From the NCBI GenBank assembly GCA_035761985.1, contig DASTQB010000206.1:14343-78342 (forward strand): 64,000 bases of DNA, written 5' to 3'. Within the stretch, counting starts at the first letter, position 1. Each line of letters opens with the position of its first letter. The notes below the pieces were generated by a model. That model made no database searches, had not been told where the DNA came from, and saw nothing but the letters and a program-made list of their open reading frames with translations. Below are positions 20,337 through 64,000 of the stretch, piece by piece. Position numbers and translations under genes: made by a program. Source of the DNA: Pyrinomonadaceae bacterium (GTDB lineage Bacteria; Acidobacteriota; Blastocatellia; Pyrinomonadales; Pyrinomonadaceae).

Positions 20337-22757
20337 ATGGATAGTCTTAGAAGCGACGTCCAGTACGCACTCAGGAGCCTCACGAAGCGTCCCGGTTTCA
20401 CTCTCATCGCCGTCATCACTCTCGCTCTCGGCATCGGCGCCAACACCGCGATCTTCAGCGTCATCCATGCACTCCTACTGAAACCACTGCATTTCCCTGA
20501 ACTCGATCGCGTCGTTGCGATCTGGGATGAAATGCCCACCCGCGACATCAAGCACAATGAAGTGACCGTCGCAAACTATCTCGACTGGCAGTCGCAGAGC
20601 CAGTCGTACGAACACCTCGCGCTCCGTCGCTGGTGGAGTGCAAATCTCACCGGCAACGATTCGCCCGAACGCATCCAGGGATTTCTCGTCACTGCAAACT
20701 TCTTCGACGCCGTCGGCATCAAGCCGGTCATGGGCCGCAACTTCACTGCGGAAGAAAACCAACCCGGCAAAGACGCAGTCGCGATCCTCACTCACACTCT
20801 CTGGCAAAGACGTTTCGGCGGCGATCCAAACATCATCGGCAAAACGATCACCGTAAACAGCATCGCGCGCACAGTGATCGGCGTGATGCCCGAGCGTTTC
20901 AACTATCCGAATGGCTCGGAACTCTATGCGCCACTCCCGATGACGCCCGAGTTGATGCGAAGCCGCGGCAATCATAGTTACTACGTCATCGGCCGCATGA
21001 AGCCCGGCGTTTCGGTCGAGAGTGCGCAGGCGGAAATCGACAGCATTACCGCACGACTTCAGCAGCAGTATCCGGAAACCAACGCGGGCTGGGGCGCGCG
21101 AGTTTATCCAATCGTCGCAGACACCATTCAAAACTATGACACGGCCTTGTGGGTGATTATGGCCGCAGTCGGGTTCGTGCTTTTGATCGCGTGTGCAAAC
21201 GTGGCGAACCTGATGCTTGCGCGAGCGAGTGGACGGCAGAAAGAGATCGCTTTGCGAGCTGCGCTCGGTGCGAGTCGTTGGCGGATCGTGCGGCAGTTGC
21301 TGACCGAAAGCGTGATCGTCGGTTTGGCCGGCGGAGTGATCGGAATTCTTATCGGCTTCTGGGGCGTCGACGCGTTGCGCGCAACAAATCCGGGTGAGGC
21401 GGCGAAGTTTGTCGAGGGCTGGAATCAACTCGGAATCAACGTGCCTGTGCTCGCCTTCACGTTTGCGCTCTCGATCTTCAGTGGCATCGTGTTTGGACTG
21501 TTGCCCGCGCTGCAAGTCTCGAGACCGAATCTCAACGACTCTTTAAAAGAAGGATCGCGCCAGACCGCAGGCAGTTCGCACCGGATGCGCAGTTCGCTCG
21601 TAGTTTTCGAAGTAGCGGTGTCGCTCGTGCTTCTTGTAGGCGCGGGATTGCTGGCTCGCAGTTTCCTCTCATTGTTGAGAACGGATCCGGGTTTTGATCC
21701 CGAGAACGTGCTCACGATGAACCTCGTTTTGCCGGGAGCGAAGTACAGGGACGAACCAGCGCGCGCCGCGTTCTACCAGGACCTGGTCCAACGCGTGAAG
21801 ACAACGCCGGGCGTGCAGTCAGCGGGGTTCGTCAACTACATCCCGCTCAGCGGCAGCAACTCTTCCAACTCGTATCTGGTTGAAGGTGAGCCCGAGCCGG
21901 CACCGGGCAACGAGTACGACGGGCGTTATCGCGTCAGCACTCCCGACTATTTCCAGACGATGGGCATTTCGATCCTGCGTGGTCGAGGTTTCACTGAGCA
22001 GGACAAAGCAGGTGCGCCGCGCGTCGTCATCGTAAACGAAACACTCGCGCGCAAGCACTGGCCGGGCCAGGAGGCGATCGGGAAACGCATTCGCTTCGAT
22101 GGACCACTCGATCAGAACCCGTGGATGGAGATCGTCGGTGTAGTGAACGACGTGAAGCACGAACTCGATCTCGCAGTCACACCCGAATACTACCTGCCGC
22201 ATGCACAGGATCCATGGAGCGCGATGGTGCTGGTGGCAAGGACGACAGTCGATCCGGCTTCGCTTGCGGGTTCGCTCCGGCAGCACGTGTGGGCCATTGA
22301 CAAGGACCAGCCAGTATACGACGTGAAGACGATGCACGAAGTGCGATCGATTTCGGTAGTGCTGTATTCGTTCTCATCGGTGATGCTTGGAATCTTCGCG
22401 AGCATCGCCCTCTTGCTGGCGTCGATTGGAATTTACGGCGTGATGGCGTTTGCCGTGACGCAGCGTACGCAGGAGATCGGGATACGCATGGCGCTTGGTG
22501 CGCGGGCGCTCGACGTTTTGAAGCTGGTGGTCACGCACGGGATGAAGCTTGCGCTGATCGGGATCGCGATCGGGTTGGCGGGTTCGTGGGCGTTGACTCG
22601 TTTTATCAAAGGACTGCTGGTGGGCGTGGAGGCGACTGACGCGTTGACCTTCAGCGTGGTGTCGCTGTGTTTGCTGGTGGCTGCGTTTATCGCGTGCTAT
22701 CTGCCGGCGCGACGGGCGACGAAAGTCGATCCGCTCGTGGCATTGAGATACGAATAG
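20337..22757 (+). CDS. ADOP-type duplicated MacB/FtsX-like ABC permease, paralog 1
   Basis: 806 aa from ATG 20337 (AAGGGA upstream). N-term [41 protein letters not shown]. FtsX block 1 [44 protein letters not shown]. Block 2 [26 protein letters not shown]-term [16 protein letters not shown]. The track start 20190 reads through the MITE and is rejected. Confidence 0.9.
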
Positions 22758-22792
22758 GGCCTATAGGTCATAAAGGTCCTATAGGACCTATT
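22753..22792. repeat. Family A 9-bp-periodic repeat (4 units) with perfect palindrome AGGTCCTATAGGACCT
   Basis: aatagggcc tataggtca taaaggtcc tataggacc tatt. The first unit includes the TAG stop at 22755-22757. Confidence 0.8.
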
Positions 22793-22800
22793 AAGGATTC

Positions 22801-25215
22801 ATGGATTCGCTGATCAAAGACATCCGTTATGGCGCTCGCATGCTGATCAAGAAGCCCGGCTTCGCGATCATTGCTGTGCTGACGCTTGCTCTCGGGATCG
22901 CTGCAACCACGGCCACGTTCACCGTCGTCGACGCCGTGTTGTTGCGGAAGCTGCCGGTCGCCGATCCCGATCGCGTGGTCGTCATTCACAATCAGCTTCC
23001 GAAGCTCAATCTTCCACGCAGTCCAGTTTCCGGTCCGCATTACCTCGATTACAGCCGCCAGACCGACGCGTTCCAGTCAACCGCCGCTTTTGCAACTCGC
23101 AACTTCAATCTTACCGGCGTCACTTCGCCTGAGCGTTTGCAGGCGGGCCGCGTGACGGCGAGCTTCTTCCCGATGCTCGGCATTGGTCCAACTGCCGGCC
23201 GCTTCTTCACTCCCGAAGAAGATCAATTCGGGAACGAACGTGTCGCGGTGCTGAGTACGCGCTTGTGGAAACGGCTCTACAGTTCCGACACGTCCGCCTT
23301 CAACAAGACGCTCCAGCTCAACGGCGATCATTATCAAATCGTAGGCGTCGCGCCTGAGTCGATCGAAGAGATCTATCCGAACGTTGAACTGTGGATTCCG
23401 ATGGCTTTCTCGCCGCGCGAGCTTTCGCCGGAACGCCGCAACAGCCTCGCCTACATTATGATCGCGCGTCTGCAGAATGGCACGACCATTGAGCGTGCGC
23501 AGGCGATCATGAGCGGCGTCGCGAAGAACAGTTCCGGCTCGGATCCCGACATCTTCAACATCGAAGTCCGTTCGCTTGCAGATTCGTACGTGAGCGAAGT
23601 GCGGCAGCCGCTGTTCGTACTGCTGTGCGCCGTCATTGCCGTCCTGTTGATCTCGTGCGCGAACGTAGCAAACCTCCTGCTCGCGCGTGCGACTGTGCGC
23701 GGTCACGAGATCGCCGTTCGTTCAGCTCTGGGCGCCGGCCGGAGCCGTATCGTTCGTCAACTTCTGACTGAAAGTCTTCTGATCGCACTGCTCGGCGGCG
23801 CGATTGGAATGCTGCTCGCCGTGTGGGGCACAAAGGCTCTGCTTGCGCTTGCGCCCAGCACCCTCCCGCGTCTCAGCGCGGTTCAAGTCGATCTCAGAAT
23901 TCTTTTACTGAGCTTTGGTGCGTCATTGGTTTGCGGCGTGATCTTCGGCTTGGTCCCCGCGTTAACTGCTTCAAAGACCAATCTCGTCAGTTCGCTCAAA
24001 GAATCCGAACGAACCGATTCAGGTGGTGGCACGCGCCACTGGCTGCGGAGAACATTCGTCGTTGCGGAAGTCGCGATCGCACTCGTGCTCCTGTTTTCAG
24101 CGGGCCTGCTCGTCAGGAGTTTCGGAAAGCTGCTCGACGTGAAGCCCGGGTTTGATCCGACAAACGTGCTCACGGTGCGGCTGTCTCTGCCCGGGGCTCA
24201 GTACGACAAAGCTACCAAAGTCGCTACGTTCTACGACGACGTGCTGGCGCGCGTCTCTGCTTTGCCCGGCGTGGTCCATGCAGGCGCGGCGTTTCAAACT
24301 CCGTTTACGCCCGGCGCCGACAATTCGACGTTTTCAATTCGTGGACGGCAGGCGAACGCAGGCGATCCGCCGCCACATGCAGACTACGCGTTTGTATCTG
24401 CAAATTACTTCAAGACGATCGGGCTGCCGATTCTCAAGGGCCGCGACTTCGAACCCTCCGACATGCGCGCGGGCAATTTCTTCGCGCCCAACTCGGTCGC
24501 CATTGTCGACGAGGAACTCGCAAACCGGTACTGGCCAAACGGCGATGCAATCGGCGGCGGGATAAGCTGGAGCAGTGAAGGCCCATGGGCCACGATCGTC
24601 GGCATCAGCAAGACGGCACAGTTCAAAGACCTCACCGAGCAATCGAAGGGCACGTTCTATCTTCCTGCGTACATCTCGAGTTCGACACTGGTAGTCCGCA
24701 CTTCCGGAGATCCGCGACAGCTCGCGGGTGCGATACGCGAGCAGGTGCTCGCAGTCGATCCGAACCAACCTGTTTACGACGTCAAGACAATCGAAGAGCG
24801 AATCGCAGTAACGCTCGAGACGCGGCGGTTTGCAGTCGTGCTGCTGGGAATATTCGGAACGCTTGGTTTGGTGCTCGCGGCGATCGGTTTGTACGGCGTT
24901 CTTGCGTTCGCGGTGTCGCAACGCACACGTGAGATTGGCATTCACATGGCCCTCGGAGCGCGGGCACGCGACGTGTTGTTCATGGTGATCAAGCAGGGAA
25001 TGTCGCTGGTGCTTGTTGGCGTGGCGATCGGCGTCGCGGGCGCGTACGCGGTTACGCGCGCGATTCGGAGTTTGTTGTTTGAAGTTGGCGCGACGGATCC
25101 GCTGACGTTTGTGGCGGTGTTGCTGCTGCTTTTGTTTGTTGGGTTTGTGGCTTGTTACGTGCCCGCGAGGCGGGCGACGAAAGTCGATCCGCTCGAGGCA
25201 TTGAGATACGAATAG
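22801..25215 (+). CDS. ADOP-type duplicated permease, paralog 2
   Basis: 804 aa. [41 protein letters not shown]; [44 protein letters not shown]; [25 protein letters not shown]; C-term [16 protein letters not shown]. Confidence 0.9.
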
Positions 25216-25263
25216 GTCGATTAATAGGTCGAATAGGACCTATAGGACCTATAGGACCTATAT
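25211..25263. repeat. Family A 9-bp-periodic repeat array
   Basis: aataggtcg attaataggtcg aataggacc tataggacc tataggacc tatat. Starts on the TAG stop at 25213-25215. Confidence 0.8.
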
Positions 25264-25275
25264 CAGAAGGGGATT

Positions 25276-27792
25276 ATGGATACGCTGTTCAAAGATCTAC
25301 GCTACGGTTTACGCGGTCTGTGGAAACGCAAGGGGTTTGCCGCGATCGCGGTGCTTACGCTCGCGCTCGGCATTGGCGCCAACACCGCCATTTTCACGCT
25401 TGTCAACGCAGTGATGCTGAAGACGCTGCCGGTCGAGAAGCCGGAAGAGCTCGTGCTCTTCAGCGACACGACGAGTGAAGGAACGTCTCTTCTCGATGGT
25501 CCAAGATCAGGCCAGTGGGTGCGTTTCTCCTACGCCTCTTACGAATACTTCCGGAATCACAATCAGTCGTTTCAGGACATCGCCGCGACTCGCAGCGGCA
25601 CCGCTCGTCTCAGCGTGCGACGAACTGATGCCGAGGCGAAGGCCGCCGCGCGTGCAACGGGACATCTCGTTACCGGAAATTATTTCTCAGTGATGGGAGT
25701 GCGTGCGCAGCGCGGTCGCGTGCTCACGCCCGAAGACGATCGCGAAAACGCTCAGCCCGCGGCTGTGATCAGTCATCGCTACTGGGCCAACGAACTCAAC
25801 AGCGATCCAACAGCAATCGGCAAGACGTTCATCATCAACGGCACAAACTTCACTGTCGTCGGCATCACGCCGCCCGAGTTCTTCGGCGAGCGCGTTCGTC
25901 GCCCGCCCGATTTCTGGATGCCGCTCTCGTTCCAGCCGCAGATCGAGTTGCGCGAGTCGTTTCTCAAAGAGCAACACGCGTACTGGCTCATGCTCATGGG
26001 CCGGCTCAAACCCGGCGTGACCCTGGACCAGGCACAGGCCAGCACAAACCTCGCCCTGCGGCAGTTCCTGACCGAACAGGCAGGCAGCCAGCTCACCGAA
26101 GAACGCCAGAGAGGTATTCAAAACAGTTACGCGACGCTTGTCGAAGGCAAAGGCGGTATCTCCGGACTTCGCACTTTCTACTCGAAACCACTGCACATGC
26201 TGATGGCCATCGTCGGCATGGTGTTGTTGATTGCTTGCGCAAACGTCGGAAGCCTGTTGCTTTCGCGGGCCGCTGCGCGCAAGGCTGAAATCTCTTTGCG
26301 CATGGCGCTCGGCGCGACACGCTGGCGGATCGTTCGCCAACTCCTGACCGAGAGCATGTTGCTCGCAGTGATCGGCGGCGCGCTCGGCGTGTTGTTGGCC
26401 CAGTGGGGAGTGTACGTGCTCGTCGGTCTGGTCGCACAAGGCTCTCCGCTCGATACGCGACCGGACATTGGCGTGCTGGCGTTCACCGCAGGCGTATCGA
26501 TCCTTGCCGGCCTGTTGTTTGGTCTCATTCCCGCCCTGCAAGCGAGCCGCGCGAATCTTTCGTCCACGATGAAAGAGAAGAGCCGGACGGGAAGCCGCTT
26601 CCTGCGGCTGAGCCCCTCGTCGATGATGGTCGTATTGCAGGTCGGACTCTCGATGGTCCTGCTCACAGGCGCCGGTCTCTTCGGCCGCAGTCTCATGAAC
26701 CTGCAGAACGAAGATCTCGGTTTCGATCGAAACAACATGCTGCTGGTCGGTATCGATCCGCGTCTCGCCGGATACAAGCCCACTGACCTTTCGGCTCTCT
26801 ATCAACAGGTGATCGAACGTCTGTCAACGGTCCCGCACGTCAAAAACGTGTCGATGGCAACGTACGCGCCGATGAGCGGCACGCGACGAAGCAGCAGTAT
26901 TCAGATCCCGGGTTTCACTCCCGAGCCTGGCCAGGAGCTTGCAGTCGAAGACATCTTAACTGGACCAAAATACGCTGAGACGCTCGGCATGCCCGTGTTG
27001 CGCGGTCGCGAGATCGACATGCGCGACACCGTTTCGGCACCGCGCGTTGCAGTGGTCAACGCGACTTTCGCCGAGCGCTACTTCAAGGACCAGAATCCGA
27101 TCGGGCGCACGTTTACGTTCGACGACGAGACTGACGATGGTGCTCCACTCGAGATCGTCGGCGTTGTCGCCGACATCAAGTCGGACGATGCGCGTGGAAA
27201 ACCGGAGGCGGTGGTCTATCGCCCGATACTTCAAATTCAGGACCAGGCGGCGTACTCAGTAACTCTTCACCTGCGCACGCTCAGCGATCCTACGTCGCTC
27301 GGTTCCCAGGTGCGGCAGATGCTCAACCAGATCGACGACAAGATGCCGGTGTACGGCGTCACGTCGATGGACGAACAACTGCGCCAGAACCTGAACGAGG
27401 AGCGGTTGGTCGCGCAACTCGTCAGTTTCTTCGGCGCGCTCGCGTTGATACTCGCGTGCATCGGTTTGTACGGCGTGATGGCCCATGGCGTTGCACGTCG
27501 CACGAATGAGATTGGCATACGCATGGCGCTCGGCGCGCGTGGTGGAAACATCGCGTGGATGATTTTGCGGGAGACGTTGTTGCTCGTGCTTGCGGGTTTG
27601 GTGATTGGAGTGCCGGCGGCGCTTCTCGGAGCGCGACTGGTGTCGACACAGCTTTTTGGAATGAGTCCGACGGATCCGTTGACGTTGATTGGCGCGGCAG
27701 TGGTTTTGGCTGTGGTTGCGTTGCTGGCGGGCTACGTGCCCGCGCGCCGCGCGACGAAGATCAATCCGCTCGTCGCGCTCAGGTATGAATAG
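25276..27792 (+). CDS. ADOP-type duplicated permease, paralog 3 (long first periplasmic domain subtype)
   Basis: 838 aa. [41 protein letters not shown]; [44 protein letters not shown]; [25 protein letters not shown]; C-term [16 protein letters not shown]. Confidence 0.9.
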
Positions 27793-27887
27793 GTCCTATA
27801 GGACGAATAGGACCAATAACACGAATAGGGCTATAGGACGGATAGCTATAGGTCCTATCGGTCCTATAGGTCTTATCGGTCCTATAA
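27788..27887. repeat. Family A 9-bp-periodic repeat array (about 11 units, two inverted halves)
   Basis: aataggtcc tataggacg aataggacc aataacacg aatagggc tataggacg gatagc tataggtcc tatcggtcc tataggtct tatcggtcc tataagga. Starts on the TAG stop at 27790-27792; four further in-frame stops follow. Confidence 0.8.
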
Positions 27888-27893
27888 GGAGCT

Positions 27894-30299: not shown

Positions 30300-30392
30300 G
30301 ACCGATAGGACGAATAGGACCGATAGGGCGAATAGGACGAATAGGACGAATAGATAGGTCGTATAGGTCCTATAGGTCTTATAGGACCTATT
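30295..30392. repeat. Family A 9-bp-periodic repeat array (6 forward ATAGGACNN units, then 4 ATAGGTCNN units)
   Basis: aataggacc gataggacg aataggacc gatagggcg aataggacg aataggacg aatag ataggtcg tataggtcc tataggtct tataggacc tatt. Seven in-frame TAG codons at 30297, 30306, ... 30351. Confidence 0.85.
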
Positions 30393-30400
30393 GAAATCCG

Positions 30401-32833: not shown

Positions 32834-32846
32834 GTGCGAAGGAGAA

Positions 32847-32878
32847 ATATAGGTCCTATACGTCCTATAGGACCTATT
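32847..32878. repeat. Family A repeat hairpin (11-bp stem)
   Basis: at ataggtcctat acgtcct ataggacctat t. The arms ataggtcctat / ataggacctat are exact complements. Confidence 0.8.
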
Positions 32879-32886
32879 TCAAAACC

Positions 32887-35298: not shown

Positions 35299-35330
35299 AC
35301 GCGGATTTACGCGGAAGAAAGACACGGATT
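35299..35330. repeat. Family B repeat (three units) filling the whole spacer
   Basis: aacgcggat ttacgcggaa gaaagacacggat t, immediately followed by the ATG at 35331. Confidence 0.75.
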
Positions 35331-37854: not shown

Positions 37855-37870
37855 CCGAGGATTGTGAATC

Positions 37871-40288: not shown

Positions 40289-40292
40289 AAAG

Positions 40293-42781: not shown

Positions 42782-42787
42782 AAGAAC

Positions 42788-47904: not shown

Positions 47905-47909
47905 AGATT

Positions 47910-48044: not shown

Positions 48045-48060
48045 GATCAGGATTTAAATT

Positions 48061-50502: not shown

Positions 50503-50520
50503 GGCCGCGGATCAGCAGAA

Positions 50521-50558
50521 TAGATCCTATAGGTCCTATATGACATATAGGACCTATT
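50521..50558. repeat. Family A repeat with a perfect 13-bp-stem hairpin
   Basis: ataggtcctatat gac atataggacctat (50529-50557). Preceded by a single family B unit ccgcggatc at 50505-50513. Confidence 0.8.
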
Positions 50559-50577
50559 ACGGATTAAGGAGTGAGTG

Positions 50578-53010: not shown

Positions 53011-53050
53011 CACGGATAAACGCGGATCTTTAACACGGATTTACGCAGAT
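53011..53050. repeat. Family B repeat (four units)
   Basis: cacggat aaacgcggat ctttaacacggat ttacgcagat. Confidence 0.75.
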
Positions 53051-53060
53051 AGGAGATTTT

Positions 53061-54125: not shown

Positions 54126-54166
54126 CCGCGGATTAGGCGGATCTTTCGAAACCGATCGACACGGAT
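54126..54166. repeat. Family B repeat (four units)
   Basis: ccgcggat taggcggat ctttcgaaaccgat cgacacggat. Confidence 0.7.
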
Positions 54167-54174
54167 GAAAACTT

Positions 54175-56637
54175 ATGGACAACTTGATTAAAGACGTGCG
54201 CTATGGCGTGCGGATGTTGACGAAGAATCCCGGTGTCACGCTTGTTGCCGTCGTGACGCTCGCGCTCGGCATTGGTGCAAACACCGCGATCTTCAGTGCT
54301 GTGAATGCATTTCTGATGCGCCCGCTCGCTGTGCCGAATGCGCACGAACTCGTCCGGCCCATGGAGATCACGGAAGACCGCGACATCGCGGACGAGATGT
54401 CGTATCCGGATTTTCTCGACTATCGCAACCAGGCAACGTCGTTCGTCGCCCTCTCTGCCGAAGACATGATCCAGGCCGCGATCAGTTCCGAAAACCAGAA
54501 CGACGTGATCTGGGGACAGGTGGTTTCCGCCAACTACTTCGACATGCTCCAGGTGCAACCGATCATGGGCCGTGCGTTTCACCCGGACGAAGACAAGGCG
54601 GTCGGCGCCGGTGCCGTCGTCGTGTTGGGCTACAGCTTCTGGCAACGACGCATGGGCAGCGATCCGAACATCGTCGGCAAGACGGTCTCTCTCAACAATC
54701 GCGCGTACGAAGTGATCGGCGTTGCTCCTGATTATTTTCATGGGTCGAAGTTCGCGCTGTCGATGGACTTCTGGGTGCCGATCTCGATGGCCGAAGACCT
54801 TCGTCGCAATCCAAAACTACTCGCAGATCGTGGCAGCCACTGGATGAACGTTCTGGGCCGGCTCAAGCCGGGTGTTTCAATTGACCAGGCGTCGGCTGAA
54901 CTCGCCGCAATCGCCGCGCGCATGAACCAGGCTTATCCGGACAATCGCGCTAACAGCACCCGCGCGAAGGTGATGGGCGAGGTCGAGGGCCGCTTTGAAG
55001 ACATGGGCGGCGTGTTCCGAAGCGCCGGAGCGATCGCGATGGCGATCGCAGCGTTGATTCTCCTGATCGCGTGCGCAAACGTCGCGAACCTCATGCTCGC
55101 GAGAGCTGCCGCGCGTCGCAAGGAGATCGGCATACGTCTGGCCCTCGGCGCGAATCGTGCGCGCTTGATCCGTCAACTGTTGACCGAAAGTCTTTTACTC
55201 TCAATTGTGGGTGGCGCGCTCGGACTGCTACTCGCTTTCTGGGTCAGCGATCTGATGCAGGGCTTCGTTCCGGTTCTCGAGTACAACATCGTCGACAATT
55301 TCTTTGCACTCGATCACCGCGCGCTCGTGTTCACACTTGTTATCTCGCTCGCCACGGGCCTCGTGTTCGGGCTAGCTCCCGCGTGGCAATCGTCGAATCC
55401 GGACGTTGTGCCTGTGTTGAAAGGCGATCCGGAAGGGGCGCAAAGAGGGAAGCGAAGAGCGTTTGGTTTGCGCAACAGCCTGGTCGTCGCGCAGGTCGCG
55501 CTTTCGCTCGTGGTGCTGGTTTGCGGAGGGCTGTTCATCAAGAGTTTTCGCAAAGCACAGACGATGGATCCGGGTTTCGACAATCCGAAGGGGTTGATCG
55601 TCTCGCTGAGTCCGCAGTTGATCGGTTACGACGACGAGCAGACACGGAATTTTTATCGACAGGTTGTCGAACGTGTTTCGCACGTGCCGGGAGTTGAAGC
55701 TGCCGGCTTCGCGCGAACGCTGCCGCTCGGAGACAGTTCCAACTCGAATGGCCCAATACTCAAAGAAGGCGAGACGCTCGCACGTGGAAGTGCCGGGCGC
55801 GTCATCATGACGAACATTGTTAGTCCCGGCTTCTTCGAGGCGATGCAGATCCCGATCGTCGAGGGTCGAAACTTCGACGATCGAGATCACCTGAAATCAC
55901 AACGCGTGGTGATCGTGAACCAGAGGATGGCCCAGATGCTCTGGCCGGGTGAGAGTGCCGTGGGCAAACGGATCTTTATCGGCGCTGAGAGCCGGGATGC
56001 GCTGGAAGTTGTGGGCGTGGCGAAGCAGGGGAAATATCGAGCGCTCGCCGAGGATCCAAGGCCGTTCTTTTATTACCCTCTGGGCCAGCGACGGCCGAGC
56101 ACGATGGCGCTCGTGATGCGCGCGAATGTCGATCCGGGCAGTCTGGTTGGTGCGATTCGCAGCGAAGTGCAGGCACTCGATCGCCGTGTGCCCGTGTTTG
56201 GCGTTAAGACGATGGACCAGCACAAGACGTATGCGTTGTGGGCGCCGAATATGGCCGCGAGTTTTTCGCTCGCGTTTGGAGTGCTGGCGATCCTGTTGAG
56301 CGCGGTCGGGCTTTACAGCGTGATGGCTTACATCGTTTCGCAGCGCACGCGTGAGGTTGGGATTCGGATGGCGCTGGGCGCGGATCGTGCTGATGTGATG
56401 AAGATGATCACGCAGCAGGGGATGAGGCTTGCGGCTGTCGGGCTTGGGATCGGGTTGGTGTTGTCGCTGGCACTCGCGCAGGTGTTGTCGTCGCTGCTGA
56501 TTGGTGTGAGCGGGTATGACGTGACGACGTTTATCGTCGTGCCGGTGTTGCTGGCCGCGGTTGCGCTGGTGGCGTGTTATCTGCCGGCGCGCCGCGCTAC
56601 AAAGGTCAATCCCCTCGTGGCGCTTCGCTATGAATGA
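54175..56637 (+). CDS. ADOP-type duplicated permease, paralog 14
   Basis: 820 aa. [41 protein letters not shown]; [44 protein letters not shown]; [25 protein letters not shown]; C-term [16 protein letters not shown]. Confidence 0.9.
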
Positions 56638-56643
56638 GTTTTA

Positions 56644-56703
56644 GCCACAGATTTACGCGAATAAACACGGATTGATCTGTGTTCATCTGCGTAGATCCGC
56701 GGC
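56644..56703. repeat. Family B palindromic repeat element
   Basis: gccacagat ttacgcgaat aaacacggat tgatctgtg ttcatctgcg tagatccgcggc. Left-arm units are mirrored as reverse complements in the right arm. Confidence 0.75.
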
Positions 56704-56715
56704 GGAGATTTTTTT

Positions 56716-59217
56716 ATGGATTCGATCATCAAAGACATTCGATATGGCATCCGGAGCCTTCTAAAGCGGCCGGGATTCACCGCGATCGCGGTGCTCACGC
56801 TCGCGCTCGGCATCGGCGCGAATACAGCAATCTTCAGCGCGGTCAACGCGACGTTGATGCGCCCGCTGCCCGTCAGAGATCCCGATCGATTGCTCTTCGT
56901 CTTCAATGGACCAGCAGGCAATGTTTTCTCCTACCCCGACTACACTGCATATCGCGATCACAACACCGTCTTCGACGGCATGCTCGCGTTTGGCGGCATC
57001 ACAGCGAGTCTCAACAGCGACGATCAAACGGATCTCGTAGCCGGTGCAATCGTCTCCGGGAATTTCTTCGACGTGCTCGGCGTGCGCGCACAGCTCGGAC
57101 GCGTCATCACCCCCGACGACGACAAGGTCCCGGGCGCGCATCCGGTCGCCGTCATCAGCCACGGCCTCTGGCAACGTCGCTTCGGCGCCGATCCAAACAT
57201 ACTCGGCCGCCAGCTACTGCTAAACGGACATAACTTCACGATCATCGGCGTGCTTCCCGCCGGTTTCGACGGGCTGCAACTCGGCGTCGTACGCGATCTC
57301 TACGTGCCCATGATGCAGCAGGCCACCATGCGACCGCCGCGCGCCGGATACTCGGGCGAGATGAATCCCGACCTCCTGCAAGTGCGTGGCAATCGCTGGC
57401 TCTTCACCGTCGGCAGGATGAAGCCGGGTGTCACTCCCGAACAGGCGCAAGCCTCGCTCGCACTGATTGCGAAACAACTGGAAGAGGCTTATCCAAAAAT
57501 AAACCGCAACCGCGGTGTTTCCGTTTATGCGTTCAGCGAAAGCGATAATCCTTCGAATCGACAACAACTCTCGTCAGTCGCGCGTCTGCTGATGGCTGTG
57601 GTCGGCATCGTGCTTCTGATCGCATGTGCCAACGTCGCCAACCTCCTGCTCGCGCGCAGTTCGGCACGTACAAAAGAGATCGCCGTACGTCTCGCGATCG
57701 GCGCAACGCGCTGGCGCGTCGTTCGTCAACTACTTACCGAAGGCATATTGCTCGCAACGATCGGTGGCGGTGCCGGATTGCTGCTCGCATGGTGGGCCAC
57801 GAGATCACTGCGTGCCGCGCCACCTCCACAGGGTTCGCTACTGATCACGCCACAGTTCTCGATCGACACGCGTGTGCTCCTGTTCACGCTTGGATTGTCG
57901 CTCCTCGCCGGCGTGGTCTTCGGACTCGCACCCGCCTTGCGCGCTTCGCGCCCGGCACTGATTCCCGCGTTGAAAGACGACGCCGCAGCGTTCTTCGAAC
58001 GAACTCGAACGTTTGGTCTTCGCAACCTGCTCGTCGTGGTCCAGGTGGCACTTTCAGTCGTGCTGCTTATTGCAGCGGGACTTTTCCTCCGCAGTTTGCA
58101 ACAGGCGCAGACGATCGATCCGGGCTTTGATGCGGAGAAAGTCGTCACGCTCCCGCTCAACATCAATCTTCTTCGTTACACAAAAACGCAGGGCCGTGAA
58201 TTCTACCGGCAGGTCATCGAACGTGTTGAAGCGATTCCCGGAGTCGAATCTGCAAGCCTCGCACGCATCGCTGCGGTCAGCGGCGGTTCATCCGTTCGCA
58301 GTCTATTGATTGAAGGACGCGCCGGTTCCGGAAATCAATTTCGCAGCGATGGGGCAGGTGCGGCTCCGGGAGACAATGAGTCCGTGAGCTCGAATGTCGT
58401 TGGTCCAAAGTACTTTCAGACCATGGGCATCGGGTTGTTGCAGGGTCGCGATTTCAACGCACAGGACGCGGAAAATCATCCGCTCGTCGTGATCGTCAAC
58501 GAAGCATTCGTGCGCGTTCATTTTTCATCGGAAAATCCGGTGGGCAAGCGTTTGAGTTTTGGTGGTCCGGAAGGGCCCTGGCGCGAGATCGTCGGCGTGG
58601 TGCGCACGAGCAAGTACTTCAGTGTCGGCGAAGCGCCGACGCCGGTCGCTTACGTGCCCCTCGCGCAGAACCACGAAACGGGCATGACGCTGCACGTGCG
58701 GACGGCGGTTGATCCTTCGACAGTCGCGGGCGCGATTCGTAACGAAACACAATCGCTCGAAAAGAACCTTCCGCTCGTTCCACCTGAACTCATGAGCGAT
58801 CGTATTAACAATTCGCTTTACGCGGCGCGCATGGGTGCGATCCTGCTGGCGGTGTTTGGTGGCCTGGCGTTGTTGCTGGCGTCAATCGGGTTGTATGGCG
58901 TGATGGCGTTTGCAGTTTCGAGACGCACGCGAGAACTCGGCATACGCGTGGCGCTCGGCGCGAAGCCGCGTGATGTTTTCGGGCTCGTGTTGAGGCAAGG
59001 GATGACGCTGGTGATTGCGGGGTTGTTCGTGGGGTTGGTGGTGGCGGCGATAGTGACGCGATTGCTGGCGAGTTTTCTTTACGGTGTGAGCACGACGGAT
59101 GCGTTGACGTTCACGGCGATTCCGGTGCTGTTGGCGCTTGTGGCTTTGCTCGCGTGTTATTTGCCGGCGCGAAGGGCCACAAAGGTCGAACCGCTCGTGG
59201 CGCTGCGTTATGAATAG
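56716..59217 (+). CDS. ADOP-type duplicated permease, paralog 15
   Basis: 833 aa. [41 protein letters not shown]; [44 protein letters not shown]; [25 protein letters not shown]; C-term [16 protein letters not shown]. Confidence 0.9.
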   Translation: MDSIIKDIRYGIRSLLKRPGFTAIAVLTLALGIGANTAIFSAVNATLMRPLPVRDPDRLLFVFNGPAGNVFSYPDYTAYRDHNTVFDGMLAFGGITASLNSDDQTDLVAGAIVSGNFFDVLGVRAQLGRVITPDDDKVPGAHPVAVISHGLWQRRFGADPNILGRQLLLNGHNFTIIGVLPAGFDGLQLGVVRDLYVPMMQQATMRPPRAGYSGEMNPDLLQVRGNRWLFTVGRMKPGVTPEQAQASLALIAKQLEEAYPKINRNRGVSVYAFSESDNPSNRQQLSSVARLLMAVVGIVLLIACANVANLLLARSSARTKEIAVRLAIGATRWRVVRQLLTEGILLATIGGGAGLLLAWWATRSLRAAPPPQGSLLITPQFSIDTRVLLFTLGLSLLAGVVFGLAPALRASRPALIPALKDDAAAFFERTRTFGLRNLLVVVQVALSVVLLIAAGLFLRSLQQAQTIDPGFDAEKVVTLPLNINLLRYTKTQGREFYRQVIERVEAIPGVESASLARIAAVSGGSSVRSLLIEGRAGSGNQFRSDGAGAAPGDNESVSSNVVGPKYFQTMGIGLLQGRDFNAQDAENHPLVVIVNEAFVRVHFSSENPVGKRLSFGGPEGPWREIVGVVRTSKYFSVGEAPTPVAYVPLAQNHETGMTLHVRTAVDPSTVAGAIRNETQSLEKNLPLVPPELMSDRINNSLYAARMGAILLAVFGGLALLLASIGLYGVMAFAVSRRTRELGIRVALGAKPRDVFGLVLRQGMTLVIAGLFVGLVVAAIVTRLLASFLYGVSTTDALTFTAIPVLLALVALLACYLPARRATKVEPLVALRYE

Positions 59218-59292
59218 GACCAATAGGACTAATAGGACTAATAGGACCTATTCATACGTCCTATTCGTCCTATACGACCTATTGGTCCTATT
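59213..59292. repeat. Family A 9-bp-periodic repeat array folding as an ~80-nt imperfect hairpin
   Basis: aataggacc aataggact aataggact aataggacc tattcatac gtcctattc gtcctatac gacctattg gtcctatt. Outer 15 bp aataggaccaatagg / cctattggtcctatt are perfectly complementary. Four in-frame TAGs from 59215. Confidence 0.85.
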
Positions 59293-59307
59293 CGAAAGCA
59301 AAGGATC

Positions 59308-61758
59308 ATGGACAATCTAATCAAAGACATTCGTTATGCGATCCGAGGTTTGATCAAGCGGCCGGGGTTTGTGGCGATCGCGGTGATCACGCTTGCGCTT
59401 GGAATCGGCGCCAATACCGCGATCTTCAGCCTCGTGAACACTGTGCTGCTGCGATCCCTTCCGGTCGAGAAGCCCGGCGAGATCGTCTCCGTCTCCGTAC
59501 GCGGCAAGAACGACTCGATGTCCGCGTTCTCCTATCTAAACTACAAAGACTTCCGCGATCGCAACGACGTCCTCTCCGGCTTACTCGCCTATCGCTTTGT
59601 CCCTCTGAGCCTGAGCCGCGGCGGCTCGAACGAACGCGTCTGGGGCTATGAAGTCTCCGGCAATTACTTCGACGTCCTTGGCGTGAAAGCCATTCACGGC
59701 CGCACGTTCCTTCCTGAAGAAGACAAAACACCACTCACGCATCCCGTCGTCGTGCTCGGTTACGACGGATGGCAGCGACGCTTCGGCGGCAATCCGGGCA
59801 TCGTCGGCAAAGATGTGCTGCTCAACAATCACCAGTTTCGCGTGATCGGAATCGCGCCGGAAGGTTTCAAAGGCACCGAGTACGTCTATTCGCCCGAGCT
59901 CTGGATGCCCGCGGCGATGATGGGATGGGCCGAACCGGGCGCGTCGTGGCTCGACGATCGTCACTCTAAAAACTTCTTCGGCGTCGGTCGACTCAAGCCA
60001 GGTGTAGATGCACGACAGGCCGAAGCCTCGCTCAACCTGCTGGCCCTGCAACTCGGGAAAGAATATCCGGATTCGAACGAAGGACAGTCGATCAAAGTTG
60101 GACCACCGGGATTCATAATCCCCGAGCTTCGTAACGGCGTCGTGAGTTTTACGTGGGTTTTGATGGCGGCTGTTGCACTCGTCCTGCTCGTGACGTGTAC
60201 CAACCTCGCCGGCCTGATGCTCGCGCGTGCAACCGATCGACGGAAAGAGATCGCGATTCGACTCGCGATGGGCGCTAATCGTCTGCGACTGATCCGGCAG
60301 CTTCTCACCGAAAGCATCCTGCTCTCATTTGCCGGCGGCGCCGCGGGCGTGTTGCTTGCGCTCTGGATGTTGAAAGTTCTCCTCGCATTCAAACCGCCAA
60401 TCGATTTTCCGCTCGCACTCGACGTGAACGTCGACTGGCGTGTCCTTGTGTTTTCACTTGCAGTGTCGTTAGTCGCAGGCGCAGTCTTCGGAATCGCGCC
60501 TGCCTTACAAGCCACACGCACAAACCTCGTCCGTACTTTAAAGGACACGGCCGCGCAGGGCGGCGCGGCGCGCACGCGTTTGCGAAGCGTTCTCGTGGTG
60601 GCGCAAATCGCGATTTCACTCGTGGTCCTGATCGCCGCCGGTCTCGTCGTTCGCACACTCCAGCAACTGCAAACAATGAACCCCGGGTTCAATCCGCAGA
60701 ACGCAATCAAGATGTCGTTCGATCTCGGATTGCAGGGTTACGACGAAGCGCGTGGACACCAGTTTCACCGGCAGTTGATCGATCGTGTGCAGTCGCTGCC
60801 CGGTGTTGAGTCGGCCGCGGTCACGAGCTACGTCCCGCTCACTATCGAGTACAACAGTCGCAACGTTTTTGTTGAAGGCAAGCCCGCCGAGCGCGGCGAG
60901 AACGTGCCGATCGTGATGAACGGCGCCGCCGGCGCAGGTTACTTCAAGACTATGGGCACGCCGGTGGTCCACGGACGCGAGTTCACCGATCAGGATCAGG
61001 AAAAATCCGAACAAGTGGCGGTCGTGAACGAGACTTTCGTCCGCCGCTTGATGCCTGAGCTGCCATCGAGTGCTGAAGCCGTCGGAAAGCGTTTCAGTTT
61101 TTCAGCAGCCGGTGGTCCATTCCGCCGGATCGTGGGAGTCGCTGGAGACGGCAAATACTTCAACATCGCCGAAGATCCACGGGCGTTCGTCTGGACACCG
61201 ATGGCACAGGACTACTGGTCGAACAGCATGCTCGTGGTTCGGACGAAGGGCAACCCGGACGCGTTGATTGGTCCGGTTCGTGCGCAGGTGCACTCGCTCG
61301 ACCCGACCCTGCCTCTATTCGATGTGGAAACGCTCACCGAGCATATGAAACTCGCGTTGTTTCCCGCGAAAGTCGCGGCGACGGTGCTGGGCGTTTTCGG
61401 ATTCGTAGCTCTGATGCTTGCTGCGATCGGCGTCTACGGCATCACGTCGTACGCAGTTGCGCAGCGCACGCACGAGATTGGCGTGCGGCTCGCACTCGGT
61501 GCGCAGTTGGGTGACGTGCTCAAGCTGGTCCTCCGTCATGGATTGATGTTGACGATCATCGGCGCGGCGATCGGATTGTTGGGTGCTTATGTCGCGACGC
61601 GCGCGATCACGAGTGTGCTTTACGGCGTGAGCGCAACGGATCCGCTGACGTTTGGTTTTGTGTCGCTGTTGCTGATCGGAGTGGCGCTGATTGCGTGCTA
61701 CGTGCCGGCCCGACGCGCGACAAAGGTCGAGCCGCTCATTGCTTTGCGGAATGAGTAA
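59308..61758 (+). CDS. ADOP-type duplicated permease, paralog 16
   Basis: 816 aa. [41 protein letters not shown]; [44 protein letters not shown]; GVYGITSYAVAQRTHEIGVRLALGA; C-term ARRATKVEPLIALRNE. Confidence 0.9.
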   Translation: MDNLIKDIRYAIRGLIKRPGFVAIAVITLALGIGANTAIFSLVNTVLLRSLPVEKPGEIVSVSVRGKNDSMSAFSYLNYKDFRDRNDVLSGLLAYRFVPLSLSRGGSNERVWGYEVSGNYFDVLGVKAIHGRTFLPEEDKTPLTHPVVVLGYDGWQRRFGGNPGIVGKDVLLNNHQFRVIGIAPEGFKGTEYVYSPELWMPAAMMGWAEPGASWLDDRHSKNFFGVGRLKPGVDARQAEASLNLLALQLGKEYPDSNEGQSIKVGPPGFIIPELRNGVVSFTWVLMAAVALVLLVTCTNLAGLMLARATDRRKEIAIRLAMGANRLRLIRQLLTESILLSFAGGAAGVLLALWMLKVLLAFKPPIDFPLALDVNVDWRVLVFSLAVSLVAGAVFGIAPALQATRTNLVRTLKDTAAQGGAARTRLRSVLVVAQIAISLVVLIAAGLVVRTLQQLQTMNPGFNPQNAIKMSFDLGLQGYDEARGHQFHRQLIDRVQSLPGVESAAVTSYVPLTIEYNSRNVFVEGKPAERGENVPIVMNGAAGAGYFKTMGTPVVHGREFTDQDQEKSEQVAVVNETFVRRLMPELPSSAEAVGKRFSFSAAGGPFRRIVGVAGDGKYFNIAEDPRAFVWTPMAQDYWSNSMLVVRTKGNPDALIGPVRAQVHSLDPTLPLFDVETLTEHMKLALFPAKVAATVLGVFGFVALMLAAIGVYGITSYAVAQRTHEIGVRLALGAQLGDVLKLVLRHGLMLTIIGAAIGLLGAYVATRAITSVLYGVSATDPLTFGFVSLLLIGVALIACYVPARRATKVEPLIALRNE

Positions 61759-61759
61759 T

Positions 61760-61775
61760 CGCGGAGAACACGGAT
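61760..61775. repeat. Family B repeat remnant (two units) forming the whole 18-bp spacer
   Basis: cgcggag aacacggat, followed by cATG at 61777. Confidence 0.55.
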
Positions 61776-61776
61776 C

Positions 61777-64000
61777 ATGGAACAACTGATCAAAGATATA
61801 CGATTCGGCGCGAGAAGTTTTCTCAAGCGGCCAGGGTTTCTATTCATCGCGATTGCGACACTCGCGATCGGTATCGGTGGCACCACCGCCATGTTTACCG
61901 TCGTCAACTCGGTGTTGCTGCGGCCGCTGCCGTTTCCTGAGCCTGAACGGATCGCCCGTCTTGAATCTGTTAATCCGAAACTCGGTATTACTCAGAGCAA
62001 CTCGTCCTGGCCCGACATCACTGACTGGCAGCAACAGAGCCAGTCGTTTGAGCAGATCGCGGCGTTTAGTTCGGGTGGAGCTTTTATCAGCACCGGCGAA
62101 GAAACTGAACGCGTGCGAGCGGCTGGCGTAACGGTTGAGTTCTTTCCACTCCTGCGCACCAATCCTGTTGATGGCCGCACGTTTCTACCGGACGACATGC
62201 ACGAGAATAGCGCGTCGGTCGTTGTGATCAGCCATGCACTCTGGCAGCGACGTTTTGGCGGAACCACGGATGTGGTCAACAGCAAGATACTCGTGGGTGG
62301 CCAGAGCTCCACGATCGTCGGCGTGATGCCCGCAGGGTTTAATTATCCTGCCGAGTCGGAATTGTGGGCGCCGATGGTCCTGAACGCTGCGAGTGAACCC
62401 CGCGATAATCGGTTCCTGTCGGTGGTGGCTCGATTGAAGCCAAACGTTTCGATGTCGCAGGCGCAAGCCGACCTCGACACTATCAATCAGCGTCTGGCCC
62501 AAAACTATGTAGACACAAACAGCGGCTGGGGCGTGCGTGTGAGCGAGTTGCGTGAGCGCCTGGTCCGAAACCTGCGCCCCTCTTTGCTGATCCTGCTGGG
62601 TGCGGTCGGCCTCGTGCTACTGATCGCATGTGCAAACGTCGCCAACCTGCTGCTGGCGCGTGCAGCGTCAAGGCAGAAGGAGATCGCGGTGCGCACCGCG
62701 CTCGGTGCAAGCCGCTTCCGTGTCATTCGCCAGTTGCTGACTGAAAGCGTTCTGCTTTCCGTGGTTAGTGGATTGTTGGCGTTCGCCTTGAGTGTCTGGT
62801 TGATCAAATTGCTGGTCGCGCTCACTCCGCCGAATACACCACGCATGGACGAGATCGGGATCGATATGCGAGTGTTTGCGTTCACTCTCACGGTGACGAT
62901 CCTCGCCGGCATCCTGTTTGGACTTTTCCCTGCGCTGCAAATTTCGCGGCCCAACCTCAACGAGATGCTCAAAGACACGGGTCGTCGCGGCTCTGACAGC
63001 GGTCGCCGCAATCGCGTCGGAGGCCTGCTCATAGTTTCGGAGATTGCGCTCTCGTTCGTTCTGCTTGCAGGCGCGGGCCTGTTGATAAAAAGCTTTATTC
63101 GGCTCCAGGAAATCGATCCGGGATTCAATGCAGACAATGTTCTCGTGATGCGCCTGGGTCTGACGCCCGGCAAGTATCAGCCGGGAGAGCCGCGTGCACA
63201 GATTTACAAGCAAATGATCGATCGCGTGAAAGCGACTCCGGGTGTGCAATCCGCCGGTGCGATACTCAGCCTGCCACTCGGAGGCGATGCGTTCAACGTG
63301 TGGCGCGGAGTTATTCCCGAGGGCCGTCCGGCATCACTCGACGAACAGAAGAACGCACAACACCTGCCTGTTACGCCCGACTATTTTCAGACACTTCAAA
63401 TTCCCCTGAGAGCAGGCAGGACGTTCACCGATCGCGACGATATCAACTCGACGAAAGTCGTGATCGTGAATGAAAAGTTGGCCCATCAACTGTGGCCCGG
63501 CGAGAACCCGGTCGGCAAACGGTTCAGCGTCTGGCGCGACGAAAAGTTTTCACGTGAAGTGGTCGGTGTCGTGGGCAATACGAGGGGCAGCGGGCTCGAT
63601 ACTGAAGCGGGAGAGCAGATGTACATTCCGTACGCGCAGGATCCCACGTGGAGCGCCATGTCGCTGGTGGTGCGCACGGCGGGAGAACCCGGCGCGATGA
63701 CCACGTCGGTCCGCGAATCGATTCGAGCAGTAGATAAAGGTATACCCACGTATAACCTGAGGACGATGCGCGACGTGGTCTCCGATTCAACGGCTACGCG
63801 GCGCACGCCGATGTTGCTGCTAACCGTTTTTGCGGGAGTCGCGATGTTGCTCGCGATGCTGGGCATCTATGGCGTCACGTCTTACTACGTCACGCAGCGC
63901 ACGCACGAGATCGGTGTACGCATGGCGCTGGGCGCGCAGGTCGTCGATGTGCTGAAGCTGATCATGACGCGCGGGATGCTGCTTGCCGTTGTCGGGATCG
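61777..64000 (+). CDS. ADOP-type duplicated permease, paralog 17; 3' end outside the window. Not in the supplied ORF track because no stop is reached.
   Basis: Manual translation from ATG 61777 gives MEQLIKDIRFGARSFLKRPGFLFIAIATLAIGIGGTTAMFT..., [44 protein letters not shown] (about 62600-62740) and ...YYVTQRTHEIGVRMALGAQVVDVLKLIMTRGMLLAVVGI at the window edge. No stop codon was seen in the stretches translated by hand (61777 to about 62750 and the final ~120 nt); the interior was not checked codon by codon. Confidence 0.88.
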   Translation, partial: MEQLIKDIRFGARSFLKRPGFLFIAIATLAIGIGGTTAMFTVVNSVLLRPLPFPEPERIARLESVNPKLGITQSNSSWPDITDWQQQSQSFEQIAAFSSGGAFISTGEETERVRAAGVTVEFFPLLRTNPVDGRTFLPDDMHENSASVVVISHALWQRRFGGTTDVVNSKILVGGQSSTIVGVMPAGFNYPAESELWAPMVLNAASEPRDNRFLSVVARLKPNVSMSQAQADLDTINQRLAQNYVDTNSGWGVRVSELRERLVRNLRPSLLILLGAVGLVLLIACANVANLLLARAASRQKEIAVRTALGASRFRVIRQLLTESVLLSVVSGLLAFALSVWLIKLLVALTPPNTPRMDEIGIDMRVFAFTLTVTILAGILFGLFPALQISRPNLNEMLKDTGRRGSDSGRRNRVGGLLIVSEIALSFVLLAGAGLLIKSFIRLQEIDPGFNADNVLVMRLGLTPGKYQPGEPRAQIYKQMIDRVKATPGVQSAGAILSLPLGGDAFNVWRGVIPEGRPASLDEQKNAQHLPVTPDYFQTLQIPLRAGRTFTDRDDINSTKVVIVNEKLAHQLWPGENPVGKRFSVWRDEKFSREVVGVVGNTRGSGLDTEAGEQMYIPYAQDPTWSAMSLVVRTAGEPGAMTTSVRESIRAVDKGIPTYNLRTMRDVVSDSTATRRTPMLLLTVFAGVAMLLAMLGIYGVTSYYVTQRTHEIGVRMALGAQVVDVLKLIMTRGMLLAVVGI

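Follow-up and report, generated by a model that had tools for sequence, protein, structure and literature searches.

Gene content of the cluster

We analysed a 64,000-nt stretch of DNA (the window) from a Pyrinomonadaceae bacterium (GenBank assembly GCA_035761985.1, contig DASTQB010000206.1), which carries a long array of genes for permeases of the acidobacterial duplicated orphan permease (ADOP) family, preceded by genes for a periplasmic adaptor and two ATP-binding cassette (ABC) ATPases. Seventeen ADOP open reading frames (ORFs), termed A01 to A17, were found within 44 kb on the plus strand, from position 20337 to the window end. The 16 complete ones encode proteins of 801–866 amino acids, and the full length of A17, which is cut by the window end, was judged from its orthologs as about 801 amino acids. 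The initial annotation of this DNA had reported 17 consecutive plus-strand ORFs; the count and the common direction were correct, but the run is not consecutive, since a non-ADOP gene, termed X354, splits copies 13 and 14. It had also called the copies intact, and indeed no internal stop was present in any of the 17. Each aligned end to end with the 803-position TIGR03434 profile of the family (positions 1–803 for the 16 complete copies and 1–740 for the cut one) with scores of 901.0–1052.7 bits, well above the curated cutoff of 622.3 bits for the whole protein with full-length profile coverage. Seventeen full-length matches of more than 900 bits cannot have arisen by chance. The placement in the ADOP family and the presence of a large ADOP paralog family in Acidobacteriota were thus borne out, and the closest relatives were Pyrinomonadaceae metagenome-assembled genomes.

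The genes upstream of A01 had been overlooked. Two ABC ATPase genes, termed ATP1 and ATP2, end 1.5 kb upstream of A01 on the same strand and follow the adaptor gene, and the ADOP array is the downstream part of a cluster that starts at position 16032. The coordinates of all features are listed in Table 1.

Table 1 Features of the ADOP gene cluster. Scores are those against TIGR03434, and ortholog values are identities in related loci, which are designated by L numbers.
Feature	Position	Strand	Length (aa)	Score (bits)	Remarks
HlyD/MacA-type periplasmic adaptor (membrane fusion protein)	16032–17288	+	418		N-terminal transmembrane helix; Pfam HlyD_3, HlyD_D23
ATP1, ABC ATPase	17377–18138	+	253		Pfam ABC_tran; MacB/LolD/FtsE/DarD clade
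ATP2, ABC ATPase	18135–18830	+	231		Pfam ABC_tran; MacB/LolD/FtsE/DarD clade
Response-regulator receiver + PP2C (SpoIIE-type) phosphatase	18939–20123	+	394		Pfam Response_reg, SpoIIE
Miniature inverted-repeat transposable element (MITE)-like inverted repeat before A01	20121–20321	.			56-nt arms, 96% complementary
A01	20337–22757	+	806	1052.7	orthologs 64–80%
A02	22801–25215	+	804	950.8	orthologs 79–84%, some relatives only
A03	25276–27792	+	838	935.0	orthologs 72–82%
A04	27894–30299	+	801	997.9	orthologs 65–76%
A05	30401–32833	+	810	1006.2	orthologs 64–87%
A06	32887–35298	+	803	933.6	ortholog 69% in L007
A07	35331–37757	+	808	993.6	
A08	37871–40288	+	805	1029.1	GTG start
A09	40318–42753	+	811	939.1	
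A10	42788–45388	+	866	944.2	
A11	45418–47904	+	828	928.1	ortholog 79% in L162
MITE-like inverted repeat before A12	47906–48048				33-nt arms; region folds at −79 kcal/mol, z −10.6
A12	48061–50502	+	813	1035.1	orthologs 80–90%
A13	50578–53010	+	810	976.6	orthologs 84–95%
X354, non-ADOP	53061–54125	+	354		between A13 and A14; predicted exported/anchored
A14	54175–56637	+	820	939.1	orthologs 87–92%, directly 3' of X354 in relatives
A15	56716–59217	+	833	972.5	ortholog 88% in L162/L164, missing from L163
A16	59308–61758	+	816	955.6	orthologs 81–91%
A17	61777–64000 (cut by window end)	+	741 of ~801	901.0	profile positions 1–740 of 803
GAC NNA TAG spacers, first four	22758–22800, 25216–25275, 27793–27893, 30300–30400				
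GAC NNA TAG spacers, last four	32834–32886, 37758–37870, 50503–50577, 59218–59307				
CACGGAT-class spacers, first four	35299–35330, 40289–40317, 42754–42787, 45389–45417				
CACGGAT-class spacers, last four	53011–53060, 54126–54174, 56638–56715, 61759–61776				

Fold and conservation pattern of the ADOP proteins

Pfam MacB_PCD and FtsX domains were matched in all 17 copies, with two stretches of each in copy 1, which is shown in detail. The N- and C-terminal halves of the ADOPs share 22–25% identity (E = 3e-9), which reflects an internal duplication, and hydropathy analysis of the 17-copy alignment gave eight transmembrane (TM) segments. The AlphaFold2 model of A01 (predicted local distance difference test score, pLDDT, 84; predicted TM-score, pTM, 0.73) likewise has eight TM helices and two periplasmic domains. 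Its N-terminal half consists of an amphipathic helix, TM1, a mixed alpha/beta periplasmic domain, TM2–TM4, and a disordered cytoplasmic linker (residues 395–410, low pLDDT) that joins it to the C-terminal half, which is composed of TM5, the second periplasmic domain, TM6–TM8, and a short C-terminal helix (799–805). Two further short helices, 301–309 and 711–719, are cytoplasmic. The N-terminus of the ADOPs is a 17-residue amphipathic helix followed by TM1, with no nucleotide-binding domain (NBD). The initial annotation had described this shared architecture by motif strings, all of which correspond to the consensus of the 17-copy alignment.

A search of the PDB with the profile of the 17 copies found MacB, each half covering the TM domain and the periplasmic domain of MacB (residues 260–650; E = 5e-39). 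With the A01 model, Foldseek returned YbbP of YbbAP (9GE6) as the best whole chain and MacB next, per half; LolE, BceB, and HrtB were more distant. The hallmarks of Type VII ABC transporters are present in the ADOPs: the four-TM module, the periplasmic domain between TM1 and TM2, and coupling-helix positions at TM2–TM3 and the C-terminus. Each ADOP thus represents, within one chain, a pseudo-dimer of the Type VII (MacB) fold: it is made of two modules that each have four TM helices and a MacB periplasmic core between the first two helices, and its two periplasmic domains are non-identical.

Conservation among the 17 copies is uneven. The periplasmic domains, already noted in the initial annotation as strongly divergent, have a mean pairwise identity of 32–33% and are the most divergent large parts. 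The corresponding values are 41–64% for the TM helices, 52% for the N-terminal helix, 60% for the TM2–TM3 loop, 69% for the TM6–TM7 loop, and 81% for the C-terminal tail. In MacB, the TM2–TM3 loop forms the major coupling helix and the C-terminal helix the minor one, and both touch the NBD (PMC5985334). Since the TM2–TM3 and TM6–TM7 loops and the C-terminal helix, the most conserved parts of the ADOPs, correspond to the NBD-contacting parts of MacB, the ATPase-facing surface is the most constrained part of these proteins. In fused double permeases of the MacB superfamily, the NBDs are always encoded separately (PMC5985334).

The ADOP family comprises 78,482 clusters at 50% identity (E ≤ 1e-30). 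Among the 150 best listed representatives, 29 have an N-terminal extension of 60–90 residues (total length 864–889 amino acids; for example, P0362, P0366, and P0372), which is found in none of the 17 window copies.

Age, orthology, and turnover of the array

All-versus-all alignment of the 17 copies gave pairwise amino acid identities of 33–49% (median 40%), with no near-identical pair; neighbours were as similar to each other as non-neighbours (means of 41.0% and 40.7%). The best nucleotide stretches between copies were 60–76% identical and none higher, so recent gene conversion and assembly duplication have no place here. Two deep clades can be distinguished among the copies, and their members are intermixed along the array. 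When distance matrices were compared, that of the first periplasmic domain was correlated with that of the TM core (r = 0.41, p = 0.004) and with that of the second periplasmic domain (r = 0.45, p = 0.001); no correlation was seen between the second periplasmic domain and the TM core (r = 0.20, p = 0.12). This signal of domain shuffling between copies is weak, and no mosaic nucleotide tracts were seen in the pairwise nucleotide comparison of the 17 copies.

Orthology could be checked for A01–A06 and A10–A17. Each of these copies has its own ortholog in other species at about 64–95% identity, in the same order as in the window; the next-best window paralog reached 40–50%. Orthologs of A01–A05 were 64–87% identical in loci L002–L047, where the order A01-(A02)-A03-A04-A05-A06 is kept; A02 is polymorphic for presence and absence and was found in only some relatives. 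A01 orthologs are first or second after ATP2 in most related loci. For the distal part, a 4.68-Mb contig of a relative carries A11, an extra ADOP, A12, A13, a gene of the YceI family, X354, A14, A15, A16, and A17 in this order; the ADOP orthologs there are 73–88% identical, and X354 is 65% identical. In the closest relative that has a long contig, A12, A13, A14, A16, and A17 are present at 86–95% identity, and X354 and A15 are missing.

The array does not end with A17 in other genomes. All three relatives examined have four further ADOP genes beyond A17 before the fetched DNA ends; three of the four are orthologous among the relatives (71–84%), and these three match no copy of the window at more than 50% identity. 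The distance from the first ADOP to the last one observed in the 4.68-Mb contig exceeds 75 kb, the middle 35 kb being unread. With a listed length of 78,910 bp for the contig from which the window was taken, the window array is almost certain to extend beyond position 64000.

The ratio of nonsynonymous to synonymous substitution rates (dN/dS) was determined per region and restricted to orthologs, paralogs at 40% identity having saturated synonymous sites. The values, which are rough given a dS of 1.0–2.3, were 0.08–0.13 for the TM and cytoplasmic parts and 0.12–0.16 for the periplasmic domains. On this approximate measure, all parts of the ADOPs are under purifying selection, which is a little weaker in the periplasmic domains, and positive selection was not indicated in any region at this resolution. 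The array is ancient, maintained, and slowly turning over. The earlier proposal of an old, diversified, and maintained repertoire rather than a recent amplification is thereby supported by divergence, orthology, gene order, and dN/dS alike.

Split ADOP genes were observed in relatives (L162 1798–4299 and L165 4906–7368, giving 665 + 163 and 355 + 460 amino acids). In L016, L025, and L044, many or all genes are fragmented, non-ADOP ones included. This points to frameshift errors of the assemblies rather than ADOP decay.

The adaptor-ATPase head

The adaptor scored 100.4 bits against the NCBIfam model RND_mfp (TIGR01730; cutoff 94.9), and its next-best match was the ABC adaptor DarC. For both ATPases, the best NCBIfam matches were DarD, the MacB NBD, LolD, FtsE, and YbbA. 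ATP1 and ATP2 are 48% identical to each other, and the start of ATP2 overlaps the stop of ATP1 by 4 nt. Walker A, the signature motif, Walker B with the catalytic Glu, and the H-loop are all intact in the two proteins. They are distinguished by 56 positions that are conserved within each group and differ between the two, among them the D-loop, GNLD versus GNLH. No other permease gene was present near this cassette.

ATP2 is followed by a gene for a response-regulator receiver fused to a PP2C-type phosphatase (RR-PP2C). A membrane Ser/Thr protein kinase is encoded upstream of the adaptor (12668–14662, plus strand); the interval between the two contains genes for an AHSA1-domain protein and an ArsR-type regulator on the opposite strand. 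Many relatives retain the order BNR protein, Met-zincin, kinase, HlyD. The kinase and the receiver-PP2C phosphatase could be a pair that controls the transporter.

Linkage of the head to ADOPs in relatives and metagenomes

One genome per species was scanned with ATP2, which gave 80 related loci, nearly all from Pyrinomonadaceae, that were annotated with hidden Markov models (HMMs) built from the window proteins. ATP2 was 86–99% identical across these loci. HlyD was found in 78 and ATP1 in 79 of the 80, the remainder being cut by contig ends, and the 4-nt overlap of ATP1 and ATP2 was kept in 79 of 79. The order adaptor, ATPase, ATPase, ADOP was equally constant: where at least 2 kb of sequence was available downstream, ADOPs were present there in 69 of 69 loci, and all 260 ADOP ORFs were on the same strand as ATP2. 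An ADOP gene directly follows ATP2 in 42 of the 80 loci. The RR-PP2C gene is optional, being directly after ATP2 in 36 and missing in 42. A non-ADOP permease gene beside the cassette was found in none of the 80 genomes. In a search for ATP2 homologs, the matches listed were only close relatives with at least 87% identity.

More distant ADOPs were sampled from metagenomes. An earlier scan with A17 alone had given no matches, and a scan with the 17-copy alignment gave 80 diverse ADOP loci, 36–59% identical to copy 17. In 16 of these, an ATPase gene directly adjoins an ADOP gene. The metagenome ATPases sort cleanly into orthologs of ATP1 (72–81% identity, usually right after an ortholog of HlyD at 47–52%) and orthologs of ATP2 (60–72%, often with an RR-PP2C gene next); the ADOPs beside them are 35–50% identical to any window copy. 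Several arrangements were observed: HlyD-ATP1 followed by four to seven ADOPs (L084, L090, L095, and L137), ATP1-ADOP-ATP2 (L107 and L112), and seven ADOPs-ATP2-ADOP-RR-PP2C (L103). The RR-PP2C gene recurs beside ATP2 or ADOP genes in L084, L103, L107, L119, and L149. The two ATPase types and the adaptor are thus old companions of the ADOP repertoire, and they evolve slowly whereas the repertoire evolves fast.

X354 and YceI-family genes inside the arrays

X354 has a signal or TM helix, a beta domain, and a 13-helix alpha-solenoid with five SSDYE-type repeats (AlphaFold2 pLDDT 87). It had no match in Pfam or NCBIfam, its homologs (more than 1198) are all unnamed, and Foldseek returned only generic repeat-protein (alpha-solenoid) matches. 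In relatives, X354 is always just upstream of an A14-type ADOP. This position suggests that X354 may be a periplasmic partner protein.

A YceI-family (lipid/polyisoprenoid-binding) gene was observed in the ADOP array of two relatives (L162 9454–9990, L164 512–1048, and L165 4237–4767); the window has no such gene. Its next gene downstream is X354 in the 4.68-Mb contig and the split A14 ortholog in a complete chromosome, where X354 is lacking. By analogy with TesA, the partner of YbbAP (PMC12646458), YceI and X354 in the arrays give no more than a hint of periplasmic partners and hydrophobic cargo.

Spacer repeats and other elements

The spacers between the array genes are 18–156 nt long, and many of them carry repeats. 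Eight consist of runs of a 9-nt unit (GAC NNA TAG, that is, ATAGGACC) followed by runs of its reverse complement, and form long hairpins of −15 to −44 kcal/mol (z −2.3 to −6.4). TAGGACC occurs 29 times versus 2 expected. The first unit overlaps the conserved gene end, which encodes ...YE-stop, and in frame the units read as repeated stop codons. An element of the GAC NNA TAG type was also seen 3' of an unrelated gene (2319–2410).

A second class of spacer contains CACGGAT, CGCGGAT, or CACAGAT units about 10 nt apart, sometimes as a hairpin; such repeats were also observed outside the array, at 5255–5290 and 10054–10153. With a T run after its hairpin (−30.8 kcal/mol), the spacer at 56638–56715 resembles a terminator. 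Related genomes have the same hairpin design with other units, such as AAGACC or CAAAGAA in L011. Scans of the array for sigma-70 promoters and intrinsic terminators gave sites no more often than shuffled sequence and were uninformative on operon structure. An Rfam scan of the whole window gave no matches.

Of the two MITE-like inverted repeats, the one before A01 looks like a recent insertion, because its arm sequence was absent from all 165 related loci fetched. Elsewhere in the window, a small thioredoxin-like ORF (about 4857–5180, plus strand; ...WAEWCAPCR...), unrelated to the array, was noted after a sigma-70 gene, where ORFs of at least 150 amino acids leave a gap.

A model of ADOP function and its alternatives

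The order of adaptor, ATP1, ATP2, RR-PP2C, and a long co-directional run of ADOPs, with 17 in the window and probably more beyond, is an ancient and conserved arrangement, most of which is made up by the ADOP array. From gene order and conservation, we consider it fairly probable that the ADOPs of this cluster are Type VII (MacB-like) permeases that use the adaptor and the ATPase pair in common, their diverged periplasmic domains providing different specificities. ATP1 and ATP2, probably as a heterodimer, would dock on the conserved cytoplasmic coupling helices of an ADOP; a heterodimer is suggested by the translational coupling of the two genes, the ATP1-ADOP-ATP2 operons, and the two unequal permease halves. 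ATP binding and hydrolysis would act through the TM stalk on the periplasmic domains, which would open and close by mechanotransmission as in MacB, LolCDE, and YbbAP, and substrates in the periplasm or in the outer leaflet of the inner membrane would be expelled or extracted. At least some ADOPs may pass them via the adaptor to an outer-membrane channel encoded elsewhere. On this view, one motor and one adaptor would be combined with alternative permease bodies, the ADOP paralogs, every one of which would have a periplasmic specificity of its own. A bolder form of this model, which we put forward as a tentative possibility, is that a single conserved ATPase heterodimer, matched to the unequal halves, and a single adaptor serve from 17 to at least 30 interchangeable permeases encoded in cis, and that other ADOPs borrow the motor in trans. 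The permease library would evolve by gene birth and death and the motor would be nearly fixed.

Several observations weigh against this model. No ADOP-adjacent ATPase gene was present in 21 of the 28 metagenome loci of at least 12 kb. The commonest other neighbour was a gene for a PadR-family regulator of the acidobacterial type, just upstream of 12 sampled ADOPs (TIGR03433, 140 bits versus a cutoff of 102). Most ADOPs in nature therefore do not lie beside an ATPase gene, and the PadR-family gene stands upstream of these 12 instead. In several metagenome loci, ATP1 and ATP2 are split by many ADOPs or are alone in the available sequence, so that two separate homodimeric systems are possible. 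Between close relatives, shared gene order can reflect inheritance and not selection. The coupling-helix motifs are common to the whole MacB/FtsX superfamily and indicate that ADOPs need some NBD, not this one in particular. A single ATPase pair for at least 17 permeases also raises a stoichiometry problem. Finally, no TolC-like protein was found by Pfam among the upstream ORFs of at least 150 amino acids in the window; TolC genes are often unlinked.

Some of these points fit a narrower reading, in which the cassette has a single cognate permease, the ADOP closest to it (A01 or its positional equivalent), and the other 16 or more are independent units that use ATPases encoded elsewhere in the genome, as tandem duplicates left in place. 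The A01 orthologs are the most constant neighbour of ATP2, the three-gene arrangement ATP1-ADOP-ATP2 exists (L107 and L112), and elsewhere many ADOP genes stand singly, each with a PadR regulator of its own. We nevertheless regard this reading as rather unlikely. In more distant relatives (L038, L043, L046, and L047), a non-orthologous ADOP, not A01, comes first after ATP2; conservation of order, co-direction, and the short spacers extends through the entire array, for more than 40 kb; and neither the window array nor the 20-kb array stretches seen in relatives contain a further ATPase gene. It is much less probable still that ADOPs are true orphans that work without an ABC ATPase, for example as passive periplasmic receptors, scaffolds, or regulators of envelope enzymes, with the adaptor and the ATPases serving something else. 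The historical name of the family (used in PMC3914696 and PMC11573002) and the lack of an adjacent ATPase in most sampled ADOP loci would agree with it, but the cassette adjoins no other permease gene in any of the 80 genomes, conservation in the ADOPs is highest in the two major coupling helices and the minor one at the C-terminus, and the closest structural relatives of the ADOPs are all ATP-driven machines. An artefact of assembly or a very recent amplification of a single gene has practically no probability left as the origin of the array: it was refuted by identities of 33–49% in protein and at most 76% in nucleotide sequence between copies, and by distinct orthologs in the same order in independent assemblies, including a complete 7.49-Mb chromosome.

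ADOPs are among the largest uncharacterised membrane-protein families of soil bacteria, with dozens of copies possible per genome, and were called orphan for want of a known ATPase partner. The two ATPase ortholog groups and the adaptor are now candidate partners. If the model of a shared motor is true, soil Acidobacteria would gain a repertoire of export or extraction specificities, which would be a plausible basis for their chemical resilience in soil, and many permeases on a single motor would be a new organisational principle for ABC transporters. Borrowing of the same motor in trans would also explain why ADOPs elsewhere in the genome look orphan.

Comparison with known systems

The closest whole-chain counterpart, Escherichia coli YbbAP-TesA (PDB 9GE6–9GE8; PMC12646458), resembles the window system in having a single-chain double MacB-type permease with two periplasmic domains, separate NBDs, and Type VII mechanotransmission. 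YbbP differs in having 10 TM helices including two linking helices (PMC12646458, PMC5985334), versus 8 in an ADOP, and the identity is 13–14%. Unlike the window system, YbbAP has a YbbA homodimer made from one gene, a TesA partner, no adaptor, and a single permease gene. MacAB-TolC (PDB 5NIK, 5LIL, and 5GKO) shares the TM and periplasmic alignment of MacB with each ADOP half, a HlyD/MacA-type adaptor encoded upstream, and ATPases of the MacB-NBD type. MacB is, however, a homodimer with an N-terminally fused NBD, whereas an ADOP is a fused pseudo-dimer accompanied by two different separate NBD genes; MacAB has one permease gene, and the window has many, with no TolC-like gene seen among its upstream ORFs. 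LolCDE is similar in its two non-identical FtsX-type halves, its separate ATPase of the same clade, and its extraction of hydrophobic cargo from the inner membrane, but LolC and LolE are separate proteins, LolD is a homodimer, the system occurs once per genome, and it has no adaptor.

The darobactin exporter DarBCD gave the best NCBIfam match of both ATPases (DarD), the second-best match of the adaptor (DarC), and a weak partial match (DarB) in 17 of the 17 ADOPs. These scores are far below the equivalog cutoffs (255 versus 375, 83 versus 450, and 34 versus 700), and no darA- or darE-like genes are present.

In Psychroflexus torquis, genomic island 43 carries 8–10 ADOP paralogs in a highly expressed 42-kb cluster, beside other transporters, some of them ATP-binding (PMC3914696). 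It differs from the window array in belonging to a member of the Bacteroidota, in lying on a horizontally acquired island, and in having fewer copies; neither a conserved adaptor and two-ATPase head nor cross-species orthology was reported for it (PMC3914696). Dyadobacter genomes contain 28–33 ADOP copies. In the literature searched, with subscription journals mostly outside the search, ADOPs appeared only in passing family mentions and were not linked to a specific ATPase pair and adaptor, and no array of this length with cross-species orthology was described. The protein family is known and named; its linkage to an adaptor and an ATPase pair appears to be undescribed.

As for the ADOP family itself, the window proteins are full-length members, with two FtsX and two MacB periplasmic core domains in about 800 amino acids. 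They differ from the family description in following an adaptor gene and two MacB-type ATPase genes, in an order conserved across Pyrinomonadaceae, and the PadR-type regulator (TIGR03433) that frequently precedes ADOPs elsewhere is absent from the window. In that description, "orphan" means neither fused nor adjacent to genes for ABC ATP-binding proteins. The term is doubtful for this array because the adaptor gene and the two ATPase genes lie immediately upstream; the adjacent ATPase genes are at odds with the historical label and leave the sequence-based membership unaffected. The conserved adaptor and two-ATPase head thus challenges the orphan label and yields a testable model of ADOP function.

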